32,000 nucleotides of DNA from Candidatus Nitrosopumilus koreensis AR1 (GTDB lineage Archaea; Thermoproteota; Nitrososphaeria; Nitrososphaerales; Nitrosopumilaceae). A program made the translations under genes and the position numbers. Of this stretch, positions 3,271 through 32,000 are shown piece after piece; positions within the stretch are counted from its first letter, which is position 1, and each line of letters opens with the position of its first letter. The notes beneath the pieces were generated by a model. That model was not told where the DNA came from. It made no database searches and saw only the letters and a list, made by a program, of their open reading frames with translations. The stretch covers positions 360,001-392,000 of the forward strand of contig NC_018655.1 of assembly GCF_000299365.1 (NCBI RefSeq), given 5' to 3'.

Positions 3271-3343
3271 AACAATATTAGGACCTTTTTCTTTTTTATT
3301 GTTCTGAAAAGCTTTTAATCTCTAAAAGAGGGGTTTTTTGATT

Positions 3344-4615
3344 ATGAACATTGTTGAAAAGATTCTTGCACGTGCATCAGGAAAATCGCAAGTCACACCT
3401 GATGATGTAGTGTTTGCAAATGTCGATAAAGTTATGGTTCACGATGTTTCAGGTCCTGGTGTTATCAAAGTATTTGACAAATTAAAAAACAAGGGTGTTG
3501 ATGTCAGTAAATTATGGGATCCATCAAAGGTTTGGGTTGCAGAAGATCACTTTGTCCCATCTGCTGAAAAAGTATCTGCTGAAAATATTGTAAAATTATC
3601 AAATTTTACAAAAAGTTATGGAATTGAAAAACATTTCAAATATGGAATGGGACAATATGGAATTTGTCATACGTTATCTCATGAAGAGGCATTGGTTATG
3701 CCTGGTGATGTCTATGTTGGCGGTGATTCTCATACTAACACAACGGGTGCACTAGGTGCATTTGCATGTGGATTGGGCCATACTGATGTTGCATATGTTT
3801 TACTTAATGGAAAAATTTGGTTTAAGGTTCCAGAAACAGACTATTTTAAACTAAACGGAAAACTCCCCGATCATGTTATGGCCAAAGATTTGATCTTGAA
3901 AATTATTGGTGATATTGGCACTGATGGTGGAAACTATAGAACAATGCAGTTTGGAGGTTCTGGAATTGATGAGATGTCTGTTGAAAGTAGATTGACTTTA
4001 TGTAACATGACTACTGAAGCTGGTGCAAAAAATGGAATTGTAGAGGCTGATCAAAAAGTTGTGGATTATCTTGCAAGTAGAGGTGCAACAAATGCTCATG
4101 TGTTTAGAGGGGATGATGATGCTCAATATGCAAATGTGTATGAATATGAGGCATCTAAACTAGAACCTCTTGTTGCAAAACCATTTTCTCCTGAAAATAT
4201 TGCAGTTGTTAGAGAAGCTCCCTCTGTAGAACTAGACAAGTCATACATTGGTTCTTGTACTGGTGCAAAATATGAGGACTTGGAAGCTGCAGCAAAAATT
4301 CTCAAAGGAAGAACTGTGAAGATTAGAACAGAAATCCTTCCTGCATCTATCTCTATTTACAAACGTGCAATGGAAAACGGATTACTTTCAATTTTCTTAG
4401 ATGCTGGAGTGACAGTTGGTCCCCCAACATGTGGGGCATGCTGTGGTGCACACATGGGAGTGTTGGCCAAAAATGAAATTTGTATAAGCACTACAAACAG
4501 AAACTTCCCTGGAAGAATGGGTCATGTTGAATCAGAGACATACCTATCATCTCCAATGGTAGCAGCTGCTTCTGCAGTAACTGGAAAAATTACTGATCCG
4601 AGGGATTTACAATGA
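3344..4615 (+). CDS. aconitase-family dehydratase large subunit, archaeal/short type (3-isopropylmalate or homoaconitate dehydratase)
   Basis: 'VHDVSGPG', 'GGDSHTNTTGALGAF', 'CNMTTEAGAKNG', 'IGSCTGAKYEDL' and 'TTNRNFPGRMG' are aconitase-superfamily Fe-S/substrate motifs. I placed the start at ATG 3344; the ORF track starts at TTG 3338. Confidence 0.85.
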   Translation: MNIVEKILARASGKSQVTPDDVVFANVDKVMVHDVSGPGVIKVFDKLKNKGVDVSKLWDPSKVWVAEDHFVPSAEKVSAENIVKLSNFTKSYGIEKHFKYGMGQYGICHTLSHEEALVMPGDVYVGGDSHTNTTGALGAFACGLGHTDVAYVLLNGKIWFKVPETDYFKLNGKLPDHVMAKDLILKIIGDIGTDGGNYRTMQFGGSGIDEMSVESRLTLCNMTTEAGAKNGIVEADQKVVDYLASRGATNAHVFRGDDDAQYANVYEYEASKLEPLVAKPFSPENIAVVREAPSVELDKSYIGSCTGAKYEDLEAAAKILKGRTVKIRTEILPASISIYKRAMENGLLSIFLDAGVTVGPPTCGACCGAHMGVLAKNEICISTTNRNFPGRMGHVESETYLSSPMVAAASAVTGKITDPRDLQ

Positions 4616-5094
4616 AAGGAAATGTCATAAAATACGAACGGGATAATATCGATACTGATGTGATTATCCCTGGACAATACCTAAAAGTTCATGATTATGC
4701 AGAACTTGCAACTCATGCAATGGAAGGATTGGATCCTGACTTTCACTCTAAAGTCAAAGAAGGTGATTTTATTTTATCTGGAAAAAATTTTGGATGTGGA
4801 TCGTCACGTGAACATGCTCCAATTGCATTATCTCATTCCGGAGTAAAGGCTGTGTTGGCATTGTCTTTTGCTAGAATTTTTTATAGAAATTCTGTAGATG
4901 GTGCATTTTTGTTACCTATTGAAATTGAAGAAGATGCTTACAAGGGAATCTCCGAAGGTGATGAAATTGATATTGACATCAACAAAAATGAAATCAATAA
5001 TCTAACAAAAAATCAAACATACAAGATGAAGCCTTTCTCTGAAATTATTGGAAAAATAATTGAAGCAGGTGGTCTCTTTAACTACAAACCATAG
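4612..5094 (+). CDS. aconitase-family dehydratase small subunit, archaeal/short type
   Basis: 4-nt overlap with the large subunit. '[16 protein letters not shown]' and '[14 protein letters not shown]' are swivel-domain motifs. Length is 160 aa. Confidence 0.85.
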
Positions 5095-5102
5095 GGTCTA
5101 AA

Positions 5103-6518
5103 ATGGGAAAAACACTTTTTGAAAAAATTTGGGATGCTCATGTTGTTGTTGAAAAACAGTCTGGACCTTCTTTAATTTACATTGACAGACATTTAGTTCA
5201 TGAAGTAACATCTCCTCAGGCCTTTGATGGGCTTAGGATGAACAACAGGAAGGTTAGAAGACCTGATCTTACCATTGCCACAATGGATCACAATGTTCCA
5301 ACAACTGACAGAGGACTTCCAATTTTAGATCAGACATCATCCGTTCAGATTCAAACCCTAGAAAAAAACTGCCACGATTTTGGAATTAAATTATTTGATA
5401 TCAACAGTCCAAACCAAGGAATAGTACATGTTATTGGTCCTCAGCTAGGAATCACTTTACCTGGTTCTACAATTGTCTGTGGTGATAGTCATACATCAAC
5501 TCATGGGGCATTTGGTGCACTAGCATTTGGAATTGGAACAAGTGATGTAGAACATGTTTTAGCATCTCAAACTTTGTGGTTAGAAAAACCAAAACCATTT
5601 GAAATTAGAGTGGAGGGAAAACGAAAGAATTCTCATGCAGTTACTGCTAAAGATGTTGTATTGTCTATTATCAAAAACATTGGCACTGGAGGAGGCACTG
5701 GAACAGTAATTGAATATCGTGGTGAAGGAATTGAAGATCTTTCCATGGAACAAAGAATGACTGTATGCAATATGTCTATTGAAGCAGGAGCCCGTGCGGG
5801 GTTGATTGCTCCTGATGAGAAGACATATGACTATTTGAGAGGTAGGCAATACACCCCAAAAAATTTTGAGTCTCTTGTAGATTATTGGAAAGAAAATCTG
5901 AAGACTGATGATGATGCAAAATTTGAAAAACAATTCACATTACACATTGATGATATTGCACCTCAAGTAAGCTGGGGAACAAATCCTGGAATGACATGTG
6001 ATGTAACAGAATCTGTTCCAACACCTGATGAATTCTCTAAAGGTGATTCTAATCAAAAGAAGGGTGCAGAAAAAGCACTTGATTATATGGACCTAAAACC
6101 TGGAACTCCAATAGAAGAAATAAAAATTGATAGGGTGTTTATTGGTTCTTGCACTAATGCAAGAATAGAAGATCTGGTTGAAGCGTCAAAAATAATCAAA
6201 GGACAAAAAGTTTCTCCTAATGTTCGAGCTATGGTTGTACCTGGTTCTCAAATGGTGAAAAAACAAGCAGAAGAAATGGGTCTTGATAAAATTTTCATTG
6301 ATGCTAATTTTGAATGGAGAGAATCTGGATGTAGTATGTGTCTTGGAATGAATCCTGATATCTTGTCTCCTGGTGAAAGATGTGCTAGCACATCTAACCG
6401 AAATTTTGAAGGAAGACAAGGTACAGGTGGACGAACTCATTTGGTTAGTCCCGTTATGGCAGCAGCAGCTGCAATTCATGGGCATTTTGTTGATGTAAGG
6501 AAGATGGATTTGAGCTAA
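5103..6518 (+). CDS. leuC: 3-isopropylmalate dehydratase large subunit (bacterial/long type)
   Basis: '[15 protein letters not shown]', '[10 protein letters not shown]', '[22 protein letters not shown]', '[11 protein letters not shown]' and '[10 protein letters not shown]'. Length is 471 aa. Confidence 0.9.
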
Positions 6519-6519
6519 A

Positions 6520-7104
6520 ATGGAACCTTTTAAGAAAACAAAAAGTATTGTGACTCCACTTGACAAGGTAAATGTTGACACTGATCAAATTGTGCCAAAA
6601 CAATTTCTAAAATTAGTGCAAAAGTCTGGATTTGGAAAATTTTTGTTCTTTAATTGGCGATATGATGAAAATGAGAAACCAAAATCAGATTTTGTATTAA
6701 ATGATTCAAAATATGATGGCTCTAAAATCTTAGTTGCAGGTGATAATTTTGGATGTGGTTCTAGCCGTGAACACGCAGTATGGGCCCTGCAAGATTATGG
6801 GTTTGCAGTGATTATTGCTCCCTCTTTTGCTGATATCTTCTTTAGCAACTGTTTTAAAAATGGAATCTTGCCTATTTCACTGGATCAAAAAATTGTAGAA
6901 AAACTACAGCATGAAACACAACCAATTGAAGTTGACTTGGAACACCAAACAATCAAAACTTCTTCTGAAACCATATCTTTTGAAATTGATTCTCACAAAA
7001 AGAAAATTCTCTTAGAGGGGCTAGATGACATTGCACAGACATATCAATATGAAAATGAAATTTCTGAATTTGAAAAACAGTCTATAATCCCATCTGTTTT
7101 ATGA
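6520..7104 (+). CDS. leuD: 3-isopropylmalate dehydratase small subunit (long type)
   Basis: It starts 1 nt after the leuC stop. 'VDTDQIVPKQFLK', 'GFGKFLFFNWRY' and '[17 protein letters not shown]'. Length is 194 aa. Confidence 0.9.
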   Translation: MEPFKKTKSIVTPLDKVNVDTDQIVPKQFLKLVQKSGFGKFLFFNWRYDENEKPKSDFVLNDSKYDGSKILVAGDNFGCGSSREHAVWALQDYGFAVIIAPSFADIFFSNCFKNGILPISLDQKIVEKLQHETQPIEVDLEHQTIKTSSETISFEIDSHKKKILLEGLDDIAQTYQYENEISEFEKQSIIPSVL

Positions 7105-9764: not shown

Positions 9765-9850
9765 ATAAAAATCTAGCTAGTCTTGAGTGTGGACTGCCTT
9801 TATCCGTACTCTGGAAAAATGCTTAAGTCAGTATTTTTTCTAAAAAACTT

Positions 9851-18361: not shown

Positions 18362-20434
18362 ATGGCATTCAACCCTTTTACTGCATTTGTTTTTGATCTG
18401 TTTATTCTATCTGCTATTATAATTACTGCATATACTTGCAATTTCTACTATTTGGCATTTCTTTCAAGAAAAAGAAAAGATGTGCTGACAGTTGCTGACT
18501 TGGGTACACCATCAATTACAATACAATTACCGATATACAATGAAAAGTATGTGGCAAAGAGACTGGTTGACTCTGTTTGTAATTTGGATTACCCTCAGGA
18601 TAAAATGAGGATAATGGTACTGGATGATTCTGATGATGATACGGTAGAATTACTTGCCAACACTGTTAACGATTACAAAAAGAAAGGATTTCATATTGAA
18701 CATGTAAGACGTGGAACTAGAAAAGGGTACAAGGCTGGAGCTCTAAAATATGCAATGCAGTCAACTGATACTGAACTTGTTGCAATATTTGATGCTGATT
18801 TTATTCCCCCTACATGGTTTCTAAAACGTGCAATCCCTCACTTTTCAAAACCCAACATTGGACTAGTTCAATGTAGATGGGGTCATGTCAACGAAAATTA
18901 TTCTGCAATAACTCAAGCACAAGCCCTTAGTCTGGACTTTCATTTTCTAATTGAACAAAAAGCAAAAAGCAATTCTCACCTGTTTATGAATTTCAATGGA
19001 ACCGCTGGTATATGGAAACGTGATTGCATTGAAGATGCTGGTGGATGGCATACTGCTACATTGGTTGAAGATCTTGATCTTAGCTATAGGGCCCAAATGA
19101 AAGGCTGGAAATGCCTCTTTCTCCCAGACATTGTAGTTGATGCAGAACTACCTGTTCAGATGAATGCTGCAAAAAGACAACAATTTCGTTGGGCTAAGGG
19201 TTCTATACAATGCGCAATAAAACTTCTTACTGATATTACAATCAAACGGAAAATCGCAATTGAGGCAAAGGTTCAAGCATTTATCCAACTTACTCGTCAT
19301 GTTGTTTTTCCTCTCATGTTAATACAATTTTTAGCACTGCCTATTTTGTTAGCTGGAGAAGTTAATCTTTATGTGATTAGCTTCCTTCCTGCAATAACAA
19401 TTGCAACATATCTTGCAATGGGACCTGGTGCATACATTATGATTATACATAGCATGTATCACAAATCTTGGAAATCAAAAGCAAAGATACTTCCAACATT
19501 ATTGGTCTATAATGCTGGAATGTCTGTAAACAATACTGTGGCCGTGTTTGATGCAGTGCTTGGAAAAAAGAATGAATTCCTTAGAACTCCCAAATATGGT
19601 GTTCTTAAGACAAAAGATGATTGGAAAAATAATGCATACAACTTACCTTTCTCACAAGTAACACTCCTTGAGATTTTCTTTGGTGTGTATGGTGTATTGG
19701 GTATTTTTGTCTCAATATTTTCAAACAATCCTATCTTTGTTCCAATCATTGCTTTGCAAACTATTGGATTCTTCTATATTGCCTATCTGAGCCTGTCTCA
19801 TACTCGATTTAAAAGAAATAAATCAAGTGTTGACCGTGTACTGACTAAGAAAGAGAAAATGGCAAATAGAGTTTACAAACTTTCCATGATTGGAATTGTT
19901 GGAATAATTGTTTTTGGAGGGTTTATGGCAATCTATGGATATAGTGTTGATATCTACCCACTTGATAGGATTAGAGGTAATCTTGATGGAATTATTGCTT
20001 CCTCTGATCCTGATGCAATTCGTGCCCATTTGGTAGCTATTCAAGCAGACATGGATGGAATCATGGCAAATGATCTCATTCCAGAAAAAACCAATGCCGA
20101 TGGTGAACTAATCTCTAAGAATCCTGTTTGGCTATTTTCAACAGAATCTACAAACTTTGTTAGAATTCAAGATAATCTGGACACAATGCTAGCAAGTATT
20201 GATAAAATATCTACTGTTCCCAAAGACAGTTCTGCATATCATACTGGAATGCTGGATGTTAACGATAGAGCTCTTCTCATTCAGACCAACATCATGGATG
20301 CAACTCCATACATGTATGTCAGTGTTGCAAATATGATGTTTTCAACAATTTGGATTGCTGCATTGTTAGGAATCTTTGCGGCATTAAAAAGAAAGAAAGA
20401 ACAACTCAAAAAAGTTGATGAATCTGGAATCTAA
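18362..20434 (+). CDS. membrane-integrated processive family-2 glycosyltransferase (cellulose-synthase-like) with C-terminal TM-ectodomain-TM extension
   Basis: 'ITIQLPIYNEKY', 'VLDDSDDDT', 'FDADFIP', 'QCRWGH', 'LVEDLDLSYR' (TED) and 'QQFRWAKG' (QxxRW). Multiple hydrophobic helices follow residue ~300. Confidence 0.85.
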   Translation: MAFNPFTAFVFDLFILSAIIITAYTCNFYYLAFLSRKRKDVLTVADLGTPSITIQLPIYNEKYVAKRLVDSVCNLDYPQDKMRIMVLDDSDDDTVELLANTVNDYKKKGFHIEHVRRGTRKGYKAGALKYAMQSTDTELVAIFDADFIPPTWFLKRAIPHFSKPNIGLVQCRWGHVNENYSAITQAQALSLDFHFLIEQKAKSNSHLFMNFNGTAGIWKRDCIEDAGGWHTATLVEDLDLSYRAQMKGWKCLFLPDIVVDAELPVQMNAAKRQQFRWAKGSIQCAIKLLTDITIKRKIAIEAKVQAFIQLTRHVVFPLMLIQFLALPILLAGEVNLYVISFLPAITIATYLAMGPGAYIMIIHSMYHKSWKSKAKILPTLLVYNAGMSVNNTVAVFDAVLGKKNEFLRTPKYGVLKTKDDWKNNAYNLPFSQVTLLEIFFGVYGVLGIFVSIFSNNPIFVPIIALQTIGFFYIAYLSLSHTRFKRNKSSVDRVLTKKEKMANRVYKLSMIGIVGIIVFGGFMAIYGYSVDIYPLDRIRGNLDGIIASSDPDAIRAHLVAIQADMDGIMANDLIPEKTNADGELISKNPVWLFSTESTNFVRIQDNLDTMLASIDKISTVPKDSSAYHTGMLDVNDRALLIQTNIMDATPYMYVSVANMMFSTIWIAALLGIFAALKRKKEQLKKVDESGI

Positions 20435-21954
20435 GAAATATTCAGATCCTTTCTGATCTCATCCACTGCTCTGATTCCATAAATATCTCTAATTTGTTGA
20501 ATTCTAACTGCCTCTTTTAACAAATCCCGCCCAATTGCGTTTGTTAAAATTGAGTAAACATCACTGAATCGAATTTCCCACTTGTCTGCACAATCTAGAA
20601 TCTTGCTTACTGCCCATTGTCTTACTTCATGTGGAAGTGGAATCTTTTCTCCCGATTCTATTGAAATCCTGTCAAACAGATTTACAATATCTGAAGTTTG
20701 TGAAGCCATGTTTTCAAGATCTTTTGAATCACCATACTTTGATTCAGCATTCATTCTGATATTTGATTGATATTCTGATAGTTTCAATAACGCCATCATC
20801 TCTTTTGAGGAATCATCAGATGCCTTGTTTGTAACACTTTTGATTGATTGCATCTCTTCAAACAATTTTTCAGTCTTTTTGTGAAATTCTGCCGTTGATG
20901 CATCTTGTCTTTTTAGCATGTCTGATGCAGATGATATTTTTTGTTCAATACTGTTTGTCTTATCAAATACATTTTGTTTGAAATCTGAGAGATCGCTTTG
21001 TACTGCTTTGAGGCCTTCTCCTACAAATGCTGTAGAATCTGCTCTGTGAGACAATGTTCCAATTTCGGTCTCAATTTTGTCAATCTTGCCTGCTAACTCT
21101 TTTATTGATTCCAAACTTATACTGTCTGCTGAACTAGCCTTGGCAGAAACTGTTTCAAATTGCTGCTTTAGGCCTTCAATTACTCCTCCTAACGAATCAA
21201 TCTTTGAGGCTTTGGATGAAATTGAATCAATTGTTGCCTTTATTGCATCTAGTTCTGAATTTAGATTTGAATTATCTGAAACTCCTTCAGTTATTTTTGA
21301 GAGTTCTTGTTTAAGACTCTCGATGATTTGAGCTCCTGTTTCAAGCTTTGCTGTTTTTCCTGAAATCTCTTCAATACTGCTCTTTAGTTTATCCATTTCT
21401 GCACCAACTTCTAAAAATGAATCTGTTTTTCCTGAGACTTTTCTGAGATCATCTCTTACTTCGTCAATTCTTTGGGCAATCTTGATGATCATTTGAGAAT
21501 TGTTTCTAATAGAATTCATGCTGTCTTCTACTTGTTGAGAAATTTCCTGAGTTTTCGTTGATTTTTGTAATTCTGATATTCTGTTAATCTCTTCTTGCAA
21601 TTTTGCTGTTTGATTGTTTATCTTGTTTACCAGATTTGATTGTGTCCTAACTTGATTTAATCCGGCATATAGCTTTTGTGTATCGTCTTCAATGATGTTA
21701 ATTTGCTTTGATTGTTTTTGAATGTGCTCTAATGCTGATGTTAGGGAATCAATCATTCCTTTCATTGAAACTAGAACTTTTTGATTTTCTCCAAAAATCT
21801 TTGACATTACTTTGATCTCTTTTTGTAACGCCTTGTTAGTGTCTGAGACTGATGCTACTTTTTTTAGTAAAACTGATGGACTTGGCTCTCTTTTTACAAC
21901 TTTTTTTGTCTTGTTTGAGGTCTTTTTCTTTGCAGTTTTTGTAGCCATATCCAT
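20431..21954 (-). CDS. long coiled-coil protein with basic N-terminus, internal repeats and a globular C-terminal domain
   Basis: 507-codon ORF. The Lys-rich N-terminus is 'TKTAKKKTSNKTKKVVKR'. About 350 aa are heptad-like and Ser/Lys/Glu-rich. The repeated units include 'ISGKTAKLETGAQIIESLKQEL' and 'ISSKASKIDSLGGVIEGLKQQF'. Confidence 0.7.
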   Translation of the reverse strand: MDMATKTAKKKTSNKTKKVVKREPSPSVLLKKVASVSDTNKALQKEIKVMSKIFGENQKVLVSMKGMIDSLTSALEHIQKQSKQINIIEDDTQKLYAGLNQVRTQSNLVNKINNQTAKLQEEINRISELQKSTKTQEISQQVEDSMNSIRNNSQMIIKIAQRIDEVRDDLRKVSGKTDSFLEVGAEMDKLKSSIEEISGKTAKLETGAQIIESLKQELSKITEGVSDNSNLNSELDAIKATIDSISSKASKIDSLGGVIEGLKQQFETVSAKASSADSISLESIKELAGKIDKIETEIGTLSHRADSTAFVGEGLKAVQSDLSDFKQNVFDKTNSIEQKISSASDMLKRQDASTAEFHKKTEKLFEEMQSIKSVTNKASDDSSKEMMALLKLSEYQSNIRMNAESKYGDSKDLENMASQTSDIVNLFDRISIESGEKIPLPHEVRQWAVSKILDCADKWEIRFSDVYSILTNAIGRDLLKEAVRIQQIRDIYGIRAVDEIRKDLNIS

Positions 21955-24127: not shown

Positions 24128-24204
24128 TGGTGCAGTTACCGGGATTTGAACCCGGGTCACGTACTTGGCAAGCACGAGTACTAACCAGACTGTACTATAA
24201 CTGC
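24128..24204 (-). tRNA. tRNA-Gly (anticodon GCC), CCA encoded
   Basis: Cloverleaf folded by hand. Acceptor GCAGTTA/TAACTGC, D stem GTAC/GTAC, anticodon stem CGTGC/GTACG with loop TTGCCAA, 4-nt variable loop, T arm CCGGG-TTCAAAT-CCCGG, then discriminator A and CCA. Confidence 0.92.
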
Positions 24205-24267
24205 AACAAACCTAGAGGCTGAATTTGGATATTAAACTGTTTTTAACTATTTTAATGAAGAATCATT

Positions 24268-24531
24268 ATGGATGAAACTCTTCTAAAGAAAATAGATGAA
24301 AAAATTCAAGAAACAATTTCTAACAAAGATGAAATCAAACAACTGATTTCAACATTGTCTGGTATAGATAATTCAAAATCATTTGCTTTGGGGATTGTTG
24401 TTGGAAGAATCTATAATGCATTTTACTATCAATCAAAACGAATTTTGAATCGAGAGCCTACAAAAGTTGAATTTGATGAATTTTTAGAATTTATTCAAAA
24501 TAAGAAATCTGATCTAGAAAATCTATGGTGA
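24268..24531 (+). CDS. hypothetical protein
   Basis: 87-codon ORF with an ATG start and helical character. No motif recognised. Confidence 0.5.
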   Translation: MDETLLKKIDEKIQETISNKDEIKQLISTLSGIDNSKSFALGIVVGRIYNAFYYQSKRILNREPTKVEFDEFLEFIQNKKSDLENLW

Positions 24532-25032
24532 TGCTTTATTCCAATCCAAAACTTTGATTGTTGGCGTTCCTGGTAATTTCACACATGCACTTTTGAGTGC
24601 TTTTTTTGCTGCTGCTAAATGTGCGTCTCCATTGACATAAAGCTCCATAATGCATTGACCTTCCTTTACTCTTGCACCTAAACTAGTAGCTTTTCCCCAT
24701 GCTCTTCTCATACCTTCTGAAATTCTATCTGCACCTGCAGTTGCAATCTGCTTATTTTCTCTTAACATATTGTGTGGGTAAATTCTTAGTCTGGAATAAT
24801 ATCCTGATTCACCGGTTGTTTTTTCTAATGTTTTGTTTGCTGCCAATCTTGTTGATTCTATTGCCATGTGTCTTAACTGCATTTTTTCATTGATGCACAA
24901 CTGGACACAATACTGGTATGTACCTCTTTTTCCACCTTGAAATTTTGCAATTTTGATCTGTGGTTTACCTTTGATGTATTTTCTTCTGGTAAATACTTGG
25001 CCATTGCCTTCTCTGTAATTGGCACCGTGCAT
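24523..25032 (-). CDS. rpl10e: 50S ribosomal protein L10e (uL16)
   Basis: 'YREGNGQVFTRRKYIKGKPQIKIAKF', 'RIYPHNMLRENK' and 'GADRISEGMRRAWGK'. Confidence 0.9.
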   Translation of the reverse strand: MHGANYREGNGQVFTRRKYIKGKPQIKIAKFQGGKRGTYQYCVQLCINEKMQLRHMAIESTRLAANKTLEKTTGESGYYSRLRIYPHNMLRENKQIATAGADRISEGMRRAWGKATSLGARVKEGQCIMELYVNGDAHLAAAKKALKSACVKLPGTPTIKVLDWNKASP

Positions 25033-25129
25033 GATATGATAAAGACCTGAATGCCCATATTTTAACGGTTAGAAGACATTTGTTCGTGTTTTCCAATGCT
25101 TATATGGAAATCATTTGGTTTTCTCCATC

Positions 25130-25693
25130 ATGGAAGAAACCCTTTTGGTAAAAGGCACATTAGTCTCAGATCAGGCATGTGTTTCTGATAAGAATATGAT
25201 TCATGACCTTGAGCTAAAAGGGTACGGAGAAACTGAAAAAGAAAAATTATTTCTAAAACAATTCGAAACGTTGTATCTACTATACACAAACAAACTCATT
25301 CTAAAGAAAGGCAAAAAGCAAATTGATTTTAATTTTTTTATGAATGCTTGCCAAGAAAATGATTCTAAAATTCTTACCAAGTTTTTGATTTACCGTGATC
25401 TCAGAAATCGAGGATATGTTGTAAAAGACGGGTTTGGATTTGGATCTGATTTCAGGGTATATGAAAGGGGACATTTTGGTGAAAAGGGGGCAAAATTTTT
25501 GATATTTGGTCTTAATGAAGGACAACAAGAAAAGATGGGCAGTTTGCAAAAAAAGATTCAAGAAATTACCCAAATGGGAAAAGAGCCAATCATTGCGGTA
25601 ATTGAGAGACGCGGTGAAGTGATCTATTACAAAATAAACAAAATGAATTTTTATGAAAATAAAACAAGACTTGAAGAGTCTTTTAATTTCTAA
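25130..25693 (+). CDS. endA: tRNA-splicing endonuclease, catalytic subunit (EndA)
   Basis: 'LIYRDLRNRGYVVKDGFGFGSDFRVYERG' and '...KFLIFGL' are the conserved catalytic-domain core. I placed the start at ATG 25130; the ORF track uses TTG 25115. Confidence 0.8.
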   Translation: MEETLLVKGTLVSDQACVSDKNMIHDLELKGYGETEKEKLFLKQFETLYLLYTNKLILKKGKKQIDFNFFMNACQENDSKILTKFLIYRDLRNRGYVVKDGFGFGSDFRVYERGHFGEKGAKFLIFGLNEGQQEKMGSLQKKIQEITQMGKEPIIAVIERRGEVIYYKINKMNFYENKTRLEESFNF

Positions 25694-26346
25694 TCTTGGA
25701 AAATCCAGTCTGCTGAATATTTTAACAGATTTTTTTCTTCGGCGTACATGAAATCATAGACATCCAAATACTTTGTCTTGTTTTGCCATAATTCCTCAAA
25801 GTCTTTCATCTTCCTCTCAACTCTCGATCTGTCATTCCATGATGTAAACACGTCAACTGATTCAAAATCCCTTGTTTGTGTAGAAAATGACTCACTTGAT
25901 GTTCCAGTAAATGCAACTACATCATCATTTTCATCTCTGAATATTCCAATTCTTTCTGAAAATGAATCTGCTATCTGCTCTGAATTTGGTATTGCAATTT
26001 TTAGCTCAATCTGACCCTTGTTGACTATGTTTTGTAGCCTTTGGATTTTTGTATCTTTGATCAGCATTCCTTCAAATGATTTTGTGTATTTTTCAGAAAA
26101 AAGTTTTGTAAACAAATTCAGATCTTCCGTTTTGAACTTGTGGCCTGTGACCATTCTTAGTTTGGCACTTCCTTCTGAAAAATTTTCAAACGCCATAGCA
26201 ATTGTTGCAAGTGTCTGAATTGATAGGAAATCAACACACCTGTCATATTCTATACAATTACCTAGACATGGAAAGAAAAATTCTGCTACAATGTCATTTA
26301 TGTCTGAACGATACTCTTCTTTTAACTCAATGTCTCGTAATCCCAA
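25690..26346 (-). CDS. stand-alone PLD-like (HKD-superfamily) domain protein with substituted catalytic residues
   Basis: 'IVAEFFFPCLGNCIEYDRCVDFLS', 'AKLRMVTG' and 'FSERIGIFRDENDDVVAFTGTSSES...ESVDVFTSW' resemble, from memory, the PLD domain found N-terminal to DEAD/DEAH helicases (consensus ~FHEKIGIF...GSxNET...VF.SW). Here H->S, K->R and N->S. Confidence 0.55.
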   Translation of the reverse strand: MGLRDIELKEEYRSDINDIVAEFFFPCLGNCIEYDRCVDFLSIQTLATIAMAFENFSEGSAKLRMVTGHKFKTEDLNLFTKLFSEKYTKSFEGMLIKDTKIQRLQNIVNKGQIELKIAIPNSEQIADSFSERIGIFRDENDDVVAFTGTSSESFSTQTRDFESVDVFTSWNDRSRVERKMKDFEELWQNKTKYLDVYDFMYAEEKNLLKYSADWIFQD

Positions 26347-26693: not shown

Positions 26694-26786
26694 TTATAAT
26701 TCTAATTCATCTTTTCTTACTTCTTCTTTTTCGTTTTCAGGATCTACTATGTTCAAGTGATATAGTATGGATTTTCTAACGTACAT
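26694..26786 (-). CDS. candidate 30-codon sORF downstream of motif copy A
   Basis: My own translation is MYVRKSILYHLNIVDPENEKEEVRKDELEL. The only support is that its ATG lies 38 nt from the GC-rich element, the same spacing as at three longer genes. Confidence 0.2.
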   Translation of the reverse strand: MYVRKSILYHLNIVDPENEKEEVRKDELEL

Positions 26787-26824
26787 GTAGAAAAATAAAA
26801 TCTGTGATACTTTAACAAGATTCT

Positions 26825-26840
26825 ATGAATACGGGGTGCT
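26825..26840 (-). promoter_or_regulatory. GC-rich promoter-proximal element, copy A (degenerate: AGCACCCCGT+ATTCAT)
   Basis: 8/10 match to the GGCACCCCGC core. A T/A-rich stretch follows, then ATG 26786 after 38 nt. Confidence 0.4.
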
Positions 26841-26874
26841 TTTAAAATAATAGAAAAATGAGCCTAAAAATTGG

Positions 26875-27609
26875 CTACTTTTGAATAGTTGGTTTGAGAT
26901 ATGTTGCTCTCATCCATAACACTACCCCTGACACAATTCCTGCTATTGCAAGTGCTATGGTGGTTGTGATTATGGGTAATCCTTCTTCGGATTCATTTTG
27001 TTGTCCTGTTGTCTCAACTGATTCCATCACTTCCTGGATTGGACTTTTTTGAACATCTGTTTTTGTTGCAGTGTCTTTTTGAACTACATTTGTGTTCTCT
27101 CTTTGAATTGATGGTTCATCAATGTTTGATCCTGCATCATTTTGAACAATAGTGCCTGAGAACATATTTGACTGGTTAAACTCGTTGACACTAGTTTCAT
27201 CTTTGATGTTTTCTAACCATGGATTGGTGATACTTGTATCTTCAATCACGGTAAATTGTATCGTTGAAGTTTCTTTTAGTTCTTCATGACTTGCAATTAT
27301 TGTGTATGTTCCAGTTGTTGAAAACTTTCCTAATGGTGGATGAAACAACCATGAAAATTCTCCTTCATCGTTTGTAGCCACATCTGGTCTAAATACCAGA
27401 TTGCCGTTTGGATCATACACTTCCAATCTTACCGGAATGTGTGATGACTCTACATTAACAAAACCGTCCACAAATATGCTTTCAGTTTTATCTATTTCTG
27501 ATTGTAGTGAAAAGATCCTTATGGACTCTTCTGCACTAGCAAAATCAATCGTAGATATCATAATCAGTGATACTCCAATCAGCATTGCTATGCAAATTTT
27601 TGTATTCAT
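26875..27609 (-). CDS. secreted, C-terminally membrane-anchored surface protein (beta-sandwich-like domain + polar linker)
   Basis: N-terminal signal-like 'MNTKICIAMLIGVSLIMISTIDFASA'. 'VRLEVYDPNGNLVFRPDVATNDEGEFSW...GTYTIIASH' is typical of Ig/CARDB-like folds. A Thr/Gln/Glu-rich linker leads to the TM 'LPIITTTIALAIAGIVSGVVLW' and a basic tail. Confidence 0.7.
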   Translation of the reverse strand: MNTKICIAMLIGVSLIMISTIDFASAEESIRIFSLQSEIDKTESIFVDGFVNVESSHIPVRLEVYDPNGNLVFRPDVATNDEGEFSWLFHPPLGKFSTTGTYTIIASHEELKETSTIQFTVIEDTSITNPWLENIKDETSVNEFNQSNMFSGTIVQNDAGSNIDEPSIQRENTNVVQKDTATKTDVQKSPIQEVMESVETTGQQNESEEGLPIITTTIALAIAGIVSGVVLWMRATYLKPTIQK

Positions 27610-27648
27610 TGAAAAAAGTATCTAAAAATGTTATAATATATTATACAC

Positions 27649-27667
27649 CTATTTGCGGGGTGCCTTT
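27649..27667 (-). promoter_or_regulatory. GC-rich promoter-proximal element, copy B (19-bp repeat CTATTTGCGGGGTGCCTTT as read on +)
   Basis: Identical over 19 bp to 27993-28011. On the minus strand, GGCACCCCGCAAATAG is followed by TATAATATATTATAA, with ATG 27609 39 nt after the 16-nt block. Confidence 0.6.
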
Positions 27668-27975
27668 CAATACTTAAGGTTCAACGAACAGACGAGATTC
27701 TGAAACCTGTCCATCTCTTTGAAAAACATTCTGCCCTTATCTGTCATCTGAAAAATTCTGTTTCTTTTGTCTACATGTTGTTCTACTAACCCTGATTCTA
27801 CAAGTTGTTTGCAACTTTCTATCACTGTGTGATGTGAAAGGTTTGCTTTGTGTGCAATATTTGATACATTTGTGCCATATTGACCTTCATATGATATTAT
27901 GGCAAGTATTTCGTGCATTTGTGCCATTTTTGAACGGTATTGTGCCTTAGCCATGAAACTTCCAACGAATTTCAT
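27667..27975 (-). CDS. small winged-helix transcriptional regulator
   Basis: 'HEILAIISYEGQYGTNVSNIAHKANLSHHTVIESCKQLVESGLVEQ...RNRIFQMTDKGRMFF' is a helix-turn-helix plus wing pattern. Alternative ATG at 27954 (Met8). Confidence 0.75.
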   Translation of the reverse strand: MKFVGSFMAKAQYRSKMAQMHEILAIISYEGQYGTNVSNIAHKANLSHHTVIESCKQLVESGLVEQHVDKRNRIFQMTDKGRMFFKEMDRFQNLVCSLNLKY

Positions 27976-27992
27976 TATAATTGATTTTAGTA

Positions 27993-28011
27993 CTATTTGC
28001 GGGGTGCCTTT
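27993..28011 (-). promoter_or_regulatory. GC-rich promoter-proximal element, copy C (19-bp repeat)
   Basis: It lies in the 70-bp divergent gap between the wHTH gene and the histidine kinase. It is 38 nt from ATG 27954, 17 nt from ATG 27975 and 34 nt upstream of TTG 28046 on the other strand. Confidence 0.6.
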
Positions 28012-28045
28012 AACTTAAATTTACACCTATAATTATTAGAAATAC

Positions 28046-29935
28046 TTGCATGTACGAATTATCTACCTTCTGATACTTGGTATGGCAACTGTTTCTGCAG
28101 TTTATGCAGTTCAGAGCTACGTGACATTTGAAGTAAATTCTGAACAACTAGTTGAATCTACTGCATTGAAGAATCAAGTTATTGCTAACAATTTGATACA
28201 AAATTTAGATCTATTCATTGACAAACGCATATCTGATTTCCAATCTTTGGAAAAAGCCAAAGAGATCCGACAAATTCTTCAATTTTCCAATGAAGAATTT
28301 TCAAAAATACCTGATATTGATGTGTATATGGAAGAAAAGACTTTTTCTTACACAAATTATAATCGATATCTGCCTTTTGTAACACAAGCTGCAGAACAAA
28401 AACATCAAAGCGAACTGTCCTCAATAATTAAAAACTATGATCAAACATATGGATTTGATTTTGCAGATGAATTTTTTGTAACAAATGCATATGGCGCAAA
28501 CATTGTTTTGATTTTGGGAGTTTCTGATTATGTGCAATATGATAAGGAATGGTGGCAAACCACAAAATCTAATGGGGTTTATGTAGGTAATGTACAGTAT
28601 TTTCCTAATTATGACTCTTATTCAATTCCCTTAGGAATTTCTATTTCTGATGAAGACGGTAAATTTCTGGGGGCAATTAAAGTTCTAATTGGATTAGAAC
28701 ATTTACTGTCTGATTTTATTAGTAATTCCATAATTCTTAATGATCAAAATAAGCAGATTTCCCTTTTAGATGAAACTGGACAAATAATTTATTCTAATGG
28801 AATAAAGTTTGACGATAATAACACCGTCCCATATTCTGACAGATTAACCAATGCTGAGGGATTTTTTGAATTTGAACTGGATAACTCTAATCATGTGTTG
28901 TCATATGCTAAATCAACAGATCCAAAAACCGGATTACAGTGGACAGTAGTTATTGCTCAGGACAAAAGAAATATCATAGAATCACTTGATGATGTGAGAA
29001 ACTCTCTAGTACTTCCTTCTGTTATTGGAATCATAGTAACTGTTGTAATTGGTATTATGATTACGATTTTTGTTTCAAAACCTCTTGAAAAATTGACAAA
29101 AATTTATGCTCAGATGTCCTCTGGAAATTTTGATGTACGCGCAGATCCAAATGTAATTCATGAAATAAACATTCTTTCGAATTCTTACAACAATTTTGTT
29201 GCCTCTTTAAAGAAACTAATTCAAACTGAAAAAGACTTGGCTGAGGCCAATGTGAAAGTAAGAAACGAACGCCTAACTGCAATTGGTGAATTGTCAGCTA
29301 GTATGGCCCATGACATGAAAAATCCTTTGGCAGTACTAAAAACTGCTACAGATGTTTTAAAACGCAAGTTTAGTGGGCAGGATGAAAAAGTTGATCAATT
29401 ATTTTCAAATATGGATGATGGAATAAACAGAATCTCTCATCAAATTCAAGATGTATTGGAATATGTTCGTACTACTCCGATGAATGTTACTAAAACAAGT
29501 CTTGTTCATATGATTGATAATGCAATCCGTTCAATCCAAATTCCTTCTTCTGTTGTAATTGAATTTCCAAAACAGGATATTGAGATTGAATGTGATCAAC
29601 AAAAAATTGAGATTGTGTTGATAAATCTAATATTGAATGCAGTTCAAGCCATTGGCCAAAAACCTGGAAAAATAATCTTCAATACTAGAGATGTTGGTGA
29701 TGTGTATGAAATTGAAATTGAGAATAGTGGTAAGCCTATACCTGATGATATTCTGCCAAAAATTTTTGAGCCCTTGTTTACTACCAAACTTCAAGGAACT
29801 GGTTTAGGTCTAGCTACATGTAAAAATGTAATTACTCAACATGGTGGATCGATTTCTGTGCAGAACGGTCCTACAAGATTCACCATTTTATTTCCAAAGA
29901 AAGTAAATGTTAACGATTTAGAGAAAGATAAATAG
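28046..29935 (+). CDS. sensor histidine kinase (TM - Cache-like ectodomain - TM - HAMP - HisKA - HATPase_c)
   Basis: TM1 'IIYLLILGMATVSAVYAV'. The ~290-aa ectodomain contains 'YDKEWWQ...GKFLGAIKVLIGLEHL'. TM2 'LVLPSVIGIIVTVVIGIMITIFV'. HAMP 'KPLEKLTKIYAQMSSGNFDVR'. H-box 'SASMAHDMKNPL'. N-box 'LINLILNAVQA'. G-boxes 'ENSGKPIP' and 'GTGLGLATC'. Confidence 0.9.
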   Translation: MHVRIIYLLILGMATVSAVYAVQSYVTFEVNSEQLVESTALKNQVIANNLIQNLDLFIDKRISDFQSLEKAKEIRQILQFSNEEFSKIPDIDVYMEEKTFSYTNYNRYLPFVTQAAEQKHQSELSSIIKNYDQTYGFDFADEFFVTNAYGANIVLILGVSDYVQYDKEWWQTTKSNGVYVGNVQYFPNYDSYSIPLGISISDEDGKFLGAIKVLIGLEHLLSDFISNSIILNDQNKQISLLDETGQIIYSNGIKFDDNNTVPYSDRLTNAEGFFEFELDNSNHVLSYAKSTDPKTGLQWTVVIAQDKRNIIESLDDVRNSLVLPSVIGIIVTVVIGIMITIFVSKPLEKLTKIYAQMSSGNFDVRADPNVIHEINILSNSYNNFVASLKKLIQTEKDLAEANVKVRNERLTAIGELSASMAHDMKNPLAVLKTATDVLKRKFSGQDEKVDQLFSNMDDGINRISHQIQDVLEYVRTTPMNVTKTSLVHMIDNAIRSIQIPSSVVIEFPKQDIEIECDQQKIEIVLINLILNAVQAIGQKPGKIIFNTRDVGDVYEIEIENSGKPIPDDILPKIFEPLFTTKLQGTGLGLATCKNVITQHGGSISVQNGPTRFTILFPKKVNVNDLEKDK

Positions 29936-29960
29936 GCACATATTCAAAAAATGGTGAATC

Positions 29961-30332
29961 TTGACTACAAACAAACTGATACTGATTGTTGATGATGACA
30001 TTCCGTTGTTAGAAAATACTGCATACATGATAGAGACACTTGGTTATGATGTTGTCACTGCAAAAGATGGTATGGAGGCAGTTGACGTGTATAGATCTGC
30101 ACAACCTTCGATGACTTTTATGGATGTTAAAATGCCCAAGCAAGATGGATTTGATGCGTTTTTCAAAATTAAAGAGTTTGATCCTGATGCAAAAGTTGTA
30201 TTGATTACTGCTTATAATATGGATGAGAAAAAGCACCTAAAAGCTAAGAGTATGAATCTCTTAGAAACAATAGAAAAACCATATGATATGGAAAAACTAG
30301 AAACAACTCTTGATAAATATCTGAACTCATAA
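29961..30332 (+). CDS. stand-alone response-regulator receiver (CheY-like, no output domain)
   Basis: 'LILIVDDDIP', phospho-acceptor context 'MTFMDVKMPKQDG', 'VVLITAY' and 'IEKPYD'. TTG start. Length is 123 aa. Confidence 0.9.
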   Translation: MTTNKLILIVDDDIPLLENTAYMIETLGYDVVTAKDGMEAVDVYRSAQPSMTFMDVKMPKQDGFDAFFKIKEFDPDAKVVLITAYNMDEKKHLKAKSMNLLETIEKPYDMEKLETTLDKYLNS

Positions 30333-31187
30333 TTTTTTTAGATTTTTTACTATTTTGAATCGTTTTTCATAAAAATCTGTCACCTCATCTAAAAATGACT
30401 GATACCATGATTTTAGATCTCTGTCTCCTTTTGTGATCAATTTGTACCATTGTTGATATTCCAGTGAAGATTTTTTTTTCTGAGGATTTTTTGAGATTAG
30501 TAACTGTGTGTAGTACCAACATGAAATCTGTTCAGCCAGATCTGTTTCCTCAATATGTTCAAAATTATCAAGATATTTTGTTGAAAGGTATGTCAGGATT
30601 TCGTATACTGGTATTTTTGAAATTTTTGTAGTTTGGATGTTATCTAAGAACAACCCTTTTGCTAACAATCTTAATCTGTACACCTCGTTGCCTATTGTAT
30701 TTTTCAGATATTCCCATTTTCCAAAAATCCATGGTATCACGTCCTTGTATTTCTCTGCCATCATGTCGATCTCCTTGTTTGTTAGGTCTAAGACATCTAA
30801 GCAATACAAAATACCATGTATTGATAGCCTGTATATGTTGGCAGGTGCCTTTAGTCTACTCTTTCCATCAATAACCACTAAACCTGTCTCGAGAACACCC
30901 ATGGAATGTCTTCCTCGATCATCTCTACCCACAAGAAATTTTCTGTATTGTTTTTCTCTGGATCTAATTTTTGCAGTATCGTTTGCTAGTTCCACTTTTG
31001 CCATCCCCCACGTTGTCTGTGGACCGTTTATGGCAAGTACGTGAAGCATTCTTTGGATATTTTCGTGATGTTTGGGGATGGTTTTTTTCCTATATGAAAA
31101 TTCTCCATACATTCTTCTTGCAGTTGGTCTTGTGTATGTCTTGTATGCATAAAGATTTCCTAGTGTGCCTGGTTTTATTTCTGCCAA
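30327..31187 (-). CDS. hypothetical protein, N-terminal wHTH-like domain + helical C-terminal domain
   Basis: 286-codon ORF with a TTG start. 'ENIQRMLHVLAINGPQTTWGMAKVE...YRKFLVGRDD...GVLETGLVV...YRLSIHGILY' looks like a winged helix. The TATA-like CTATAAAATTATTATA (31211-31226, minus) is correctly placed for a start near 31187. Confidence 0.55.
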   Translation of the reverse strand: MAEIKPGTLGNLYAYKTYTRPTARRMYGEFSYRKKTIPKHHENIQRMLHVLAINGPQTTWGMAKVELANDTAKIRSREKQYRKFLVGRDDRGRHSMGVLETGLVVIDGKSRLKAPANIYRLSIHGILYCLDVLDLTNKEIDMMAEKYKDVIPWIFGKWEYLKNTIGNEVYRLRLLAKGLFLDNIQTTKISKIPVYEILTYLSTKYLDNFEHIEETDLAEQISCWYYTQLLISKNPQKKKSSLEYQQWYKLITKGDRDLKSWYQSFLDEVTDFYEKRFKIVKNLKKL

Positions 31188-31305
31188 TCACACAACTCCA
31201 TCTTTGATCATATAATAATTTTATAGAGAAATTCTACGTTAGCATCCCACAAACAGCTGGACATTTTTTTATTTCATCTTTATAGCTGTGATGAGAATCC
31301 TTCAT

Positions 31306-31321
31306 GGCACCCCGCATTGTC
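31306..31321 (+). promoter_or_regulatory. GC-rich promoter-proximal element, copy D (GGCACCCCGC+ATTGTC)
   Basis: Exact 10-nt core on the + strand. AAATATAAAAAAAA follows, with ATG 31362 40 nt after the 16-nt block. Confidence 0.5.
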
Positions 31322-31361
31322 ACATCTATTGTGAAATATAAAAAAAATTTTCTGGTTTATC

Positions 31362-32000
31362 ATGAGCAAATTTACAATAGAACAAAAACATGTTTCTGAA
31401 AATAACAAAAAACACAGAATTGTTTCGTGTTTTGGTTGTTTTTCACAAATGGAAGTAAAAGAAGGTGTAATTGGATATGGTGGAGATTTTTTCCATCCAC
31501 AATGTTGGAAGGATTTTGAAAAATCTTCTACGGTAACATCTGATCTTAAAACCGGCCAAAAGAAAATTCTGATTATTGGTTTAGGTGAAATTGGATATAC
31601 TAATGCACAATACATGTCAGAAATTGGACTTTGGGTAGATGGCTATGACATTAATCCAGAAACCATGCAACGAGCACTAGATGAAAATGTAATCAAAGAA
31701 AAGGCTGAGAGTTTTTCTGGCTATGATTATTATCTAATCTGCATCTCGACACACAAACCTGAAAACATGTTTGTGCCTTATCTTGATGGTGTATATGAAA
31801 CCGCATATAGGTTACTAAAAGAAGCAAAAAATGGAGCACTATTAGGAATTGATAGTACAGTTCCACAAAACACAACCAGGAAAATCCTAGAAATTCTTAA
31901 CCATAAATTACACGTTGTTCATGTTCCACACAGATACTATAAACATGAAAAAGATGAACATGGTGTACAACAAGAACGCGTAATTGGAGCTTGTGAACAA
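31362..32000 (+). CDS. nucleotide-sugar dehydrogenase-like protein with N-terminal Cys/His zinc-finger extension (3' end outside window)
   Basis: Absent from the ORF track because no stop falls in the window. My own translation gives 213 codons. 'KKILIIGLGEIGYTNA' is a Rossmann GxGxxG, and 'CISTHKP...' and 'LLGIDSTVPQNTTRKI' fit UDP-glucose/ManNAc dehydrogenase N-domains. The N-terminal extension is 'CFGC-x19-HPQC'. Confidence 0.65.
   Translation, partial: MSKFTIEQKHVSENNKKHRIVSCFGCFSQMEVKEGVIGYGGDFFHPQCWKDFEKSSTVTSDLKTGQKKILIIGLGEIGYTNAQYMSEIGLWVDGYDINPETMQRALDENVIKEKAESFSGYDYYLICISTHKPENMFVPYLDGVYETAYRLLKEAKNGALLGIDSTVPQNTTRKILEILNHKLHVVHVPHRYYKHEKDEHGVQQERVIGACEQ

Follow-up and report, generated by a model that had tools for sequence, protein, structure and literature searches.

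What reads a GC-rich word that recurs at a nearly constant distance from several start codons, next to a histidine kinase and a receiver protein with no DNA-binding output of its own? The question is posed by 32,000 nucleotides of the genome of Candidatus Nitrosopumilus koreensis AR1 (NC_018655.1, positions 360,001 to 392,000; this whole stretch is the window, and coordinates are counted from its first letter), where the 10-nt core GGCACCCCGC, or a variant of it, precedes four genes around the kinase/receiver pair. A first-pass annotation of the window had taken this word for an upstream activating or operator element shared by a small regulon around that pair, and motif, geometry and conservation all lend support to the proposal. 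On comparative evidence, we put at roughly 0.6 the probability that GGCACCCCGC(A), with its core at -55 to -46, is a transcription-factor site that marks the regulon of the adjacent two-component module. The candidate factor is P286, a 286-aa protein encoded beside the receiver. About 75 kb of the 1.64-Mb source genome was covered, and both regulon size and genome-wide background are sampled from that portion.

A core at a fixed distance from TATA box and start codon

Copy A (AGCACCCCGT, 26831-26840, minus strand) lies 45 nt from ATG 26786, with a weak TATA-like box, TAAAGTAT, at 26807-26814. Copy B (GGCACCCCGC, 27655-27664, minus strand) lies 46 nt from ATG 27609, with the TATA box TATTATAA at 27631-27638. 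In the divergent gap between a small winged helix-turn-helix (wHTH) gene and the kinase gene, copy C (GGCACCCCGC, 27999-28008, minus strand) lies 45 nt from ATG 27954, with the TATA box AATTATAA at 27975-27982, while copy D (GGCACCCCGC, 31306-31315, plus strand) lies 47 nt from ATG 31362, with the TATA box AAATATAA at 31334-31341. TATA boxes and transcription starts were assigned here and throughout by sequence alone. The three GGCACCCCGC cores and the AGCACCCCGT variant are all found in the sequence where the first-pass annotation had placed them. The sizes of the divergent gaps, 70 bp for 27976-28045 and 174 bp for 31188-31361, also agree with its description, as do the distances of 38, 39, 38 and 40 nt that it had counted from a 16-nt block to ATG 26786, 27609, 27954 and 31362, which become 45, 46, 45 and 47 nt when counted from the 10-nt core. 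The 16-nt unit itself does not hold up, as only ~11 nt (RGCACCCCGYA) are kept across orthologues; the AAATAG tail common to copies B and C is not conserved across orthologous promoters. The idea that the CGCAAAT tail resembles a B recognition element (BRE) was likewise rejected on spacing, since the tail lies 12-18 nt upstream of the TATA box, with its end 12-13 nt short of it, instead of abutting it; among orthologues, nothing of this tail is kept beyond CA.

The 8-mer GCACCCCG, common to copies A to D, occurs exactly four times in the 32-kb window, all within 26.8-31.4 kb, where base composition predicts 0.105 copies per window (Poisson P(>=4) = 4.6e-6). The earlier count of four copies is right for this 8-mer; to it is added a degenerate inverted copy E (AGCATCCCACA, 31241-31251, plus strand), 54 nt upstream of the P286 start codon TTG 31187. 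A scan of the remaining 27 kb for the family pattern described below found no properly phased copy. Two matches to the general pattern, one at 9788-9798 on the minus strand (GGCAGTCCACA), 24 nt before the GTG start of the gene for RNA polymerase subunit D (Rpb3-like), and one at 28554-28564 inside the kinase gene, are without TATA/ATG phasing and are probably due to chance, with 0.4 such matches expected.

Read towards the gene, the core comes first, then an AT-rich TATA-like box spanning +17 to +24, then the start codon, at +45 to +47, with 16-18 nt between the end of the core and the TATA box. Among the 36 distinct island-type instances in all fetched DNA, that is, those of the window's own variant, the ATG falls at index 45-47 in 29, and the consensus at index 17-24 is TAWWATAW. 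Across the wider family (227 distinct instances), an open reading frame (ORF) of at least 30 codons starts at index 31-60 in 155, and 106 of these 155 start at index 45 or 46.

Orthologous loci, numbered with the prefix L, were fetched through homologues of the small wHTH protein that are 59-89% identical to it. Co-conservation of neighbourhood and motif, which the first-pass annotation had named as a check, was examined in these loci, and both gene order and core are kept: the wHTH gene is divergent from the kinase-receiver genes, and the P286 gene is convergent with the receiver gene and divergent from a dehydrogenase operon. GGCACCCCG(C/T) stands at the same spacing in every orthologous promoter, and information content in the alignment is limited to the ~11 positions of RGCACCCCGYA. 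The core is 100% identical in 9 distinct wHTH and 9 distinct dehydrogenase promoters, against 0.89-0.96 for the TATA box and 0.58-0.79 for the flanks; for the dehydrogenase promoters, the orthologues of copy D, the values are 1.00 (core), 0.96 (TATA) and 0.58 (5′ flank). Five distinct orthologous promoters of copy B have a core identity of 0.96 versus 0.52 in the 5′ flank, and around copy C a 22-nt stretch, TTTAAGTTAAAGGCACCCCGCA, is invariant in most orthologous wHTH promoters. For copy A, the promoters of homologous short ORFs (sORFs) in L001, L002 and L015 carry AGCAACCCGCA with the ATG at index 46. On these alignments, the element has the constrained upstream position and the phylogenetic footprint of an upstream activating sequence (UAS) or operator. 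Its place relative to TATA box and start codon fits leaderless archaeal promoters, as had been suggested. Leaderless mRNAs are usual for the first genes of thaumarchaeal operons (PMC6028130), and the start codons of the target genes are probably transcription starts as well.

Copies in front of the P286 and dehydrogenase genes vary in their arrangement. Copies E and D are 65 nt apart in the window and ~243 nt apart, with a small ORF between them, in L020, L021 and L082. Equivalents of copy E (GGCATCCCGC or GGCACCCCGC) lie at -54 to -65 in these three loci and 54 nt upstream in L005. In one lineage (L005:6676-6722, minus strand; also L006 and L007), two exact GGCACCCCGC copies, 38 nt apart, precede the dehydrogenase operon.

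The motif family and the kinase, receiver and P286 genes

Comparison of loci indicates that the element belongs to a wider motif family, of which it is the form specific to the island; the family accompanies a conserved trio of genes, encoding a kinase, a receiver and P286, across ammonia-oxidizing archaea. Members of the P286 family occur in Nitrosopumilus, Nitrosarchaeum, Nitrosotenuis, Nitrosotalea and Nitrososphaera (158 representatives at 50% clustering), and counts for the trio were drawn from 69 distinct P286 loci. P286 faces a convergent receiver-only gene in 56 of 58 loci, and a dCache/HAMP kinase is then present in 38 of 40. The window has the same order, with P286 at 30327-31187 on the minus strand and the receiver (29961-30332) and kinase (28046-29935) on the plus strand. 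The sensor histidine kinase is a transmembrane protein with a periplasmic sensor domain (dCache_1 is called in its homologues) followed by HAMP (E = 2.2e-5), HisKA (E = 1.3e-12) and HATPase_c (E = 1.9e-21) domains. It starts at TTG 28046, and its first 12 codons are kept across loci with conservative or synonymous changes. The response regulator, of 123 aa, begins at a TTG 25 nt after the kinase stop and matches Response_reg (E = 1.2e-22). It is receiver-only, with no DNA-binding output domain; judged by eye, its translation has the acidic residues of a receiver, Asp55 among them, as well as Thr83 and Lys105. The 286-aa protein, the proposed DNA-binding output, is 100% identical to NKOR_02270 of Ca. 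Nitrosopumilus koreensis AR1. Its winged-helix core spans residues 39-121, and it too starts with TTG (31187), with a putative TATA-like promoter stretch, CTATAAAATTATTATAT, at 31210-31225 (minus strand), ~27 nt upstream. The receiver and P286 genes overlap by 6 nt at their 3′ ends (30327-30332), and tail-to-tail packing, as an overlap or a gap of 0-3 nt, recurs in L001, L016 and L018, which belong to distant orders. All three signalling genes thus start with TTG (28046, 29961 and 31187) and all predicted targets with ATG at a fixed distance from the motif; the TTG starts may mean low constitutive expression of the signalling proteins.

The wider family, RGCA-NN-CC-R-CA, has a promoter geometry identical to that of the island variant. 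In the loci that we call core-type, the word is overall AAGGCA(T/G/C)(G/A)CC(A/G)CAAA; a (C/A)(T/A)AATAA box follows after 16-18 nt and the start codon after 45-46 nt. In 28 of 50 such loci, versus 0.36 expected, the intergenic DNA contains GGCATGCC. The form is GGCATGCCGCA in Nitrososphaera and Nitrosotenuis and GGCATGCCACA, GGCAGGCCACA or GGCATACCACA in Nitrosopumilaceae, while GGCACCCCGC is confined to a subclade whose P286 is at least ~70% identical to that of the window and which also has the gene for the small wHTH protein, of the HTH_45 family. The central positions differ even among island genomes (GGCAACCCGC, GGCATCCCGC, GGCACTCCGC). Family copies cluster within ~4 kb of the trio, in Nitrososphaerales and Nitrosopumilales alike; the trio's two edges have 0.96 and 1.5 copies per kb, and beyond ~6 kb there are at most 0.05 per kb. 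The genes downstream of them encode small zinc-ribbon proteins (~70 and 117 aa), secreted proteins and short acidic peptides.

One genome, that of N. koreensis, holds both kinds of module. The core-type module, NKOR_08155, uses GGCAT(G/A)CCACA, and the island module uses GGCACCCCGCA. Of the NKOR_08155 copies, GGCATGCCACA lies over the gene's own ATG and drives a 54-aa peptide, and GGCATACCACA, divergent from the kinase, drives a 106-aa zinc-ribbon protein. Core-type loci, over 520 kb, contain a single instance of the island variant. With both motif sets in one genome, two operator variants coexist with two paralogous modules. An intermediate locus, L077:4448-9999, has the HTH_45 gene, a homologue of the window's 244-aa surface protein and the dehydrogenase gene, with GGCACCCCGC promoters, together with a P286 gene whose ATG still lies within GGCATCCCAC; this locus may record a step between the core-type and the island-type arrangement.

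The core-type module lies near the ammonia monooxygenase genes in N. koreensis-type genomes, ~1.3-1.9 kb downstream of amoC-amoX-amoA (L101:6307-13197, L102:1-6580). In the other fetched loci, no amoA gene was found near the trio.

Which protein reads the element

The first-pass annotation had left open which of two wHTH proteins binds the element. The evidence shifts the choice from the small wHTH to the 286-aa protein and does not settle it; we think it rather likely, on comparative grounds, that P286 is the binder. In 47 of the 69 distinct P286 loci, including NKOR_08155, an inverted motif spans the P286 start codon, at exactly -5 to +4; with T at motif position 5 the start is ATG, and with C it is GTG. 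The TATA box 26 nt upstream of this embedded start also serves the divergent target gene. A motif over the start codon combined with a shared TATA box is what an autoregulatory operator at a leaderless start looks like, which argues for P286 as the binder. Moreover, HTH_45 genes are absent from nearly all core-type loci, which carry the motif family all the same, so that the family-wide element needs no linked HTH_45 protein.

The predicted structure and sequence of P286 are consistent with this role. An AlphaFold2 model built on a deeper alignment (pLDDT 88.7, pTM 0.88), which replaced a first model from 36 close homologues (pLDDT 67), has an H-H-H-beta-beta winged-helix core at residues 39-121 and a helical C-terminal half. 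Partial structural neighbours of residues ~39-130 are PadR/MarR/ArsR-type regulators and kleisin-type winged-helix domains (TM-scores ~0.2-0.45). Alone among the alignment columns, four separate the P286 proteins of loci where motif position 9 is G from those where it is A. One of them is residue 90, at the wing tip between the invariant R88 and R91, which is D in all position-9 G loci and A or S in A loci. This covariation of D90/A90 with motif position 9 is suggestive of P286 as the binder.

Several points weigh against P286. The covariation goes back to a single evolutionary event. The window's own P286, at TTG 31187, has no motif over its start codon, the start-codon operator having been lost in the island subclade. 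P286 is without a sequence match or confident structural match to any characterized DNA-binding family: Pfam, NCBIfam and PHROGs gave no match, a PDB sequence search gave only weak and implausible ones at E >= 0.02, and Foldseek against the PDB found no significant whole-protein match with either model (all E-values > 0.05, and at least 0.06 for the model with pLDDT 88.7). A Rosetta-stone search found no fusion of a receiver domain to P286, and the longer family members have no Pfam domain. In the island subclade, a dedicated HTH_45 protein has arisen, and it is the promoter of its gene that carries the best-conserved copy, so HTH_45 could be the reader of the island variant. Finally, the whole case is comparative.

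If P286 is the factor, the simplest route from the receiver, which lacks an output domain, would be contact with this separate protein. From the comparison of loci we infer a chain in which the kinase phosphorylates the receiver, the receiver acts on P286 through protein-protein contact and P286 binds the motif ~50 bp upstream of leaderless start codons; the binding, the contact, the sign of regulation and the leaderless transcription all belong to this inferred part. Bound at -50, one to two helical turns upstream of BRE/TATA, which is the position of known archaeal activators, P286 would help to recruit TBP/TFB to the TATA box and so activate transcription, and it would repress where its site overlaps the transcription start or BRE. 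The TTG starts of the kinase-receiver operon and the P286 gene are each preceded, at 38-63 nt, by an inverted copy. For the kinase, this is copy C, at 38-47 nt upstream of TTG 28046. Abutting it is TTTAACTTAAAT (28009-28020, plus strand; ~28 nt upstream of TTG 28046), which is invariant in an alignment of 12 loci and is probably the TATA box of the kinase promoter, so that one factor bound at copy C could also govern the kinase-receiver operon. In the ancestral layout, where the operator encloses the leaderless P286 start and a single TATA box serves both this start and a divergent target, occupancy would switch the direction of transcription. The paralogous modules NKOR_08155 and NKOR_02270 would be insulated by their operator variants (CCACA versus CCGCA, central TG versus CC), and the island module would drive an exopolysaccharide and surface-protein programme that resembles poly-N-acetylglucosamine (PNAG) systems. 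Only tentatively, at somewhat less than even odds, do we extend this to the proposal that ammonia-oxidizing archaea share an unrecognised pathway, in which a kinase signals through a receiver-only protein to P286 as a new winged-helix factor family on RGCA-NN-CC-R-CA, with occupancy switching the direction of transcription, variant operators insulating paralogues and the island driving the PNAG-like programme.

The strongest competitor to P286 is the 95-aa HTH_45 protein NKOR_02255 (27667-27954, minus strand), which could bind GGCACCCCGC alone or as the partner of the receiver, with P286 having another role or reading the ancestral variant only. HTH_45 (PF14947; E = 4e-10, 40.0 bits against a cut-off of 25.5) is a bona fide DNA-binding family with the relatives AF_1382 and Sso10a in the PDB, and a profile search of the PDB with the 95-aa protein matched AF_1382 and Sso10a-2. 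The gene is present in every island-type locus that covers its position and in almost no core-type locus, its promoter has the most conserved copy (22 invariant nt), as is typical of autoregulation, and the island P286 lacks an operator over its own start. However, the same architecture with the related GGCATGCCGCA, differing only at the two central positions, occurs in Nitrososphaera, Nitrosotenuis and Nitrosopumilus core modules without a linked HTH_45 gene. Those central positions also vary within island genomes, which makes them poor determinants of specificity, and L077 has HTH_45 together with a P286 whose ATG still sits in a motif copy. Binding of the island variant by the small wHTH is accordingly a minority prospect, with perhaps one chance in a few, and the protein is in any case a candidate regulon member that could act as an alternative binder or co-binder.

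Less likely still, and in our judgement improbable, is an unlinked factor, either a TFB/TBP paralogue-specific upstream element or another trans regulator, with proximity to the trio reflecting a co-regulated neighbourhood. TFB paralogues are numerous in ammonia-oxidizing archaea, a rigid distance from the TATA box would be in keeping with a factor built into the pre-initiation complex, and one target lies far from the island, by amoA. Yet the core, 16-18 bp upstream of TATA, is out of reach of TFB-BRE contacts, which abut the TATA box. Copies fall within ~4 kb of the trio in both Nitrososphaerales and Nitrosopumilales, the P286 start codon is embedded in a copy in 47 of 69 loci, two variants in one genome match two paralogous trios and the other 27 kb of the window has no properly phased copy. 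The reading of the copies as non-regulatory, that is, as chance GC-rich words, duplicated promoter cassettes or recombination or attachment sites of a genomic island, to which the 84% identity of copies B and C over 37 nt (repeat family D7; a hint of local duplication) and a tRNA-Gly gene a few kb away had lent some colour, is effectively refuted by TATA/ATG phasing fixed in >100 instances, by the embedding of start codons and by chance statistics (P = 4.6e-6), as well as by an invariant core whose flanks diverge across lineages, by a tRNA-Gly sequence that has nothing in common with the motif and by the lack of an integrase, with L10e and tRNA-splicing endonuclease genes between tRNA and locus.

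Predicted regulon content, known systems and surroundings

The targets in the window can now be described. Domain searches confirmed the gene identities first assigned to the locus, namely the HTH_45 wHTH, the HAMP-HisKA-HATPase kinase, the receiver-only regulator and the nucleotide-sugar dehydrogenase. Copy A precedes a 30-codon sORF (MYVRKSILYHLNIVD...; 26694-26786, minus strand), which is real by virtue of being conserved together with the motif in three other loci: homologous 30-aa sORFs (M.SRKNILYHLNILD...) lie 3′ of the motif in L001, L002 and L015. Copy B precedes a 244-aa surface protein (26875-27609, minus strand) with a signal peptide, an Ig-like/MG2-like middle and a C-terminal transmembrane anchor, whose homologues lie 3′ of the motif in L005, L013, L021 and L077. 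The target of copy C is the HTH_45 gene, for which the start at Met8 proposed earlier is confirmed by homologues of 95 aa, by conservation from MAKAQYRS onwards and by the RefSeq call of 95 aa. Copy D precedes a zinc-finger/nucleotide-sugar dehydrogenase gene (31362-32000, plus strand; 213 codons of its 5′ part lie in the window), the first of an operon. Past the end of the window, as judged from L100, L001 and L005, the operon encodes the dehydrogenase (344 aa), a polysaccharide deacetylase (243 aa), a GT2 chitin-synthase-like protein (479 aa) and a second deacetylase (804 aa), with Pfam matches to Chitin_synth_2/Glycos_transf_2 and Polysacc_deac_1. A processive GT2 synthase and a polysaccharide deacetylase thus occur together in a single operon, as in PNAG-like systems.

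The predicted regulon extends past the window. L100, whose sequence matches the window exactly over their shared stretch, and L102, from the same assembly, contain two further exact copies, one after the exopolysaccharide (EPS) operon and one by amoA, which brings the total to at least six genes with the motif at a fixed distance. The copy in L100, at about window coordinate 37285, is 45 nt upstream of a conserved 40-aa sORF. The other, GGCACCCCGCAAATAGG at L102:1764, has at index 46 the ATG of a 337-aa secreted protein encoded directly after amoA. In L005, a homologue of this protein (79% identity) is encoded inside the island, and the motif is present there too. The gene thus keeps the motif both in the island and far away by amoA, so that membership of the regulon survives relocation. 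Upstream of amoA, amoB, amoC and amoX in the adjacent cluster, the motif was sought and not found. The exact island-type copy in front of the 337-aa gene sits between amoA and the NKOR_08155 trio. The regulon of Ca. N. koreensis probably comprises the small wHTH, the 244-aa surface protein, the 30-aa and 40-aa proteins, the EPS-type operon and the 337-aa secreted protein, as predicted from the motif. Several motif targets are acidic proteins of 40-54 aa that end in ...GLSW(I/L)F(Q/M)(D/E)E... (L100:3903, L015:575, L005:2997 and L102:3469, all on the minus strand), and an unannotated 218-aa ORF in the window (25690-26346, minus strand) has a similar C-terminal end, ...DWIFQD.

In kind, an upstream factor site is familiar in archaea, as the Ptr2 UAS of Methanocaldococcus jannaschii, TFB-RF1 of Pyrococcus furiosus, EarA and the ArnR/ArnR1 boxes of archaellum promoters illustrate. 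The element resembles these in being a short specific site at a fixed distance upstream of BRE/TATA, with presumed recruitment of TBP/TFB, and a factor that may also repress where its site overlaps the start site has parallels in the TrmB and Lrp families. It differs in sequence, in organisms, in its candidate factor (P286, of no Pfam family) and in its coupling to a two-component system, and the evidence here is comparative only. In structure, P286 at ~39-130 comes closest, in part, to PadR and MarR regulators, which have a wHTH with a long beta-wing, and the P286 family has a putative operator over its own start; however, there is no sequence match, and P286 has double the length, its helical C-terminal half being without a counterpart.

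Archaeal two-component systems with a transcriptional output include FilI-FilR1/FilR2 of Methanosaeta harundinacea and LtrK/LtrR of Methanococcoides burtonii (PMC5847659). As described there, these also pair a histidine kinase with receiver proteins that control transcription, FilR2 likewise being receiver-only; in contrast, FilR1 and LtrR have a DNA-binding domain fused to the receiver, while in the window the sole receiver is without output and the candidate binder is a separate convergent gene. A cis-element is here delimited through comparative genomics, and the literature searched knew of none for Thaumarchaeota. According to the same survey, ~75% of response regulators in ammonia-oxidizing archaea are bare receiver domains with no known output, and most thaumarchaeal receiver-only regulators lie outside conserved neighbourhoods, so that their functions could not be inferred (PMC5847659). 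It does point to thaumarchaeal receiver-only regulators beside ArsR/HTH_20 genes, such as Nmar_0452-0453 (Galperin et al., 2018; PMC5847659). Those pairs share with the trio a receiver-only regulator signalling to a separately encoded wHTH protein, but they are divergent and of the ArsR family, and the passages of the survey that were consulted do not describe the trio with its motif. In our literature searches, neither the motif nor P286 nor any thaumarchaeal two-component regulon was described, and searches with motif strings gave only unrelated primer sequences. An upstream factor site and a two-component regulon are thus already known in kind; what appears to be new is the candidate factor family, the putative receiver-only relay and the predicted leaderless start embedded in an operator. 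The operon is likened to bacterial PNAG-type pgaABCD/icaADBC by its GT2 chitin-synthase-like synthase, its polysaccharide deacetylases and its putative control by a sensor kinase, and is set apart from it by being archaeal, by an extra zinc-finger nucleotide-sugar dehydrogenase and by the lack of recognised export components.

Ammonia-oxidizing archaea drive much of global nitrification. To our knowledge, they have no genetic system and almost nothing is known of their gene regulation. The trio with its defined DNA motif offers a concrete, testable case for receiver-only output, with one protein, an 11-bp probe and a list of predicted targets. Those targets (surface proteins, small zinc-ribbon and acidic peptides and an exopolysaccharide operon) point to regulated cell-surface or biofilm behaviour in a sediment Nitrosopumilus, and the pairing of two operator variants with two paralogous modules in a single genome neatly illustrates, in nature, how regulation is insulated once a module has been duplicated or transferred.

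Most Nitrosopumilaceae lack the signalling/EPS island, which in the window begins beyond ~26.4 kb, and the wHTH was found in only 3 of the species representatives searched. Just upstream, at 24128-25693, are tRNA-Gly(GCC) and the genes for ribosomal protein L10e and a tRNA-splicing endonuclease. A tRNA fragment or attachment site was considered as the origin of the motif and rejected: the only tRNA, Gly-GCC at 24128-24204, shares no sequence with it, and core genes intervene. A known RNA family was likewise set aside, as Rfam finds only the tRNA in the window. At 18362-21954, 6-8 kb upstream of the island and with no associated motif copy, lie genes for a second, unrelated GT2 glycosyltransferase of 690 aa and a 507-aa coiled-coil protein. 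Two tandem aconitase-family large/small subunit pairs (3338-7104, plus strand; 425 + 160 aa and 471 + 194 aa), probably paralogous dehydratases of the isopropylmalate/homoaconitate type, explain the direct-repeat families D1 and D2.

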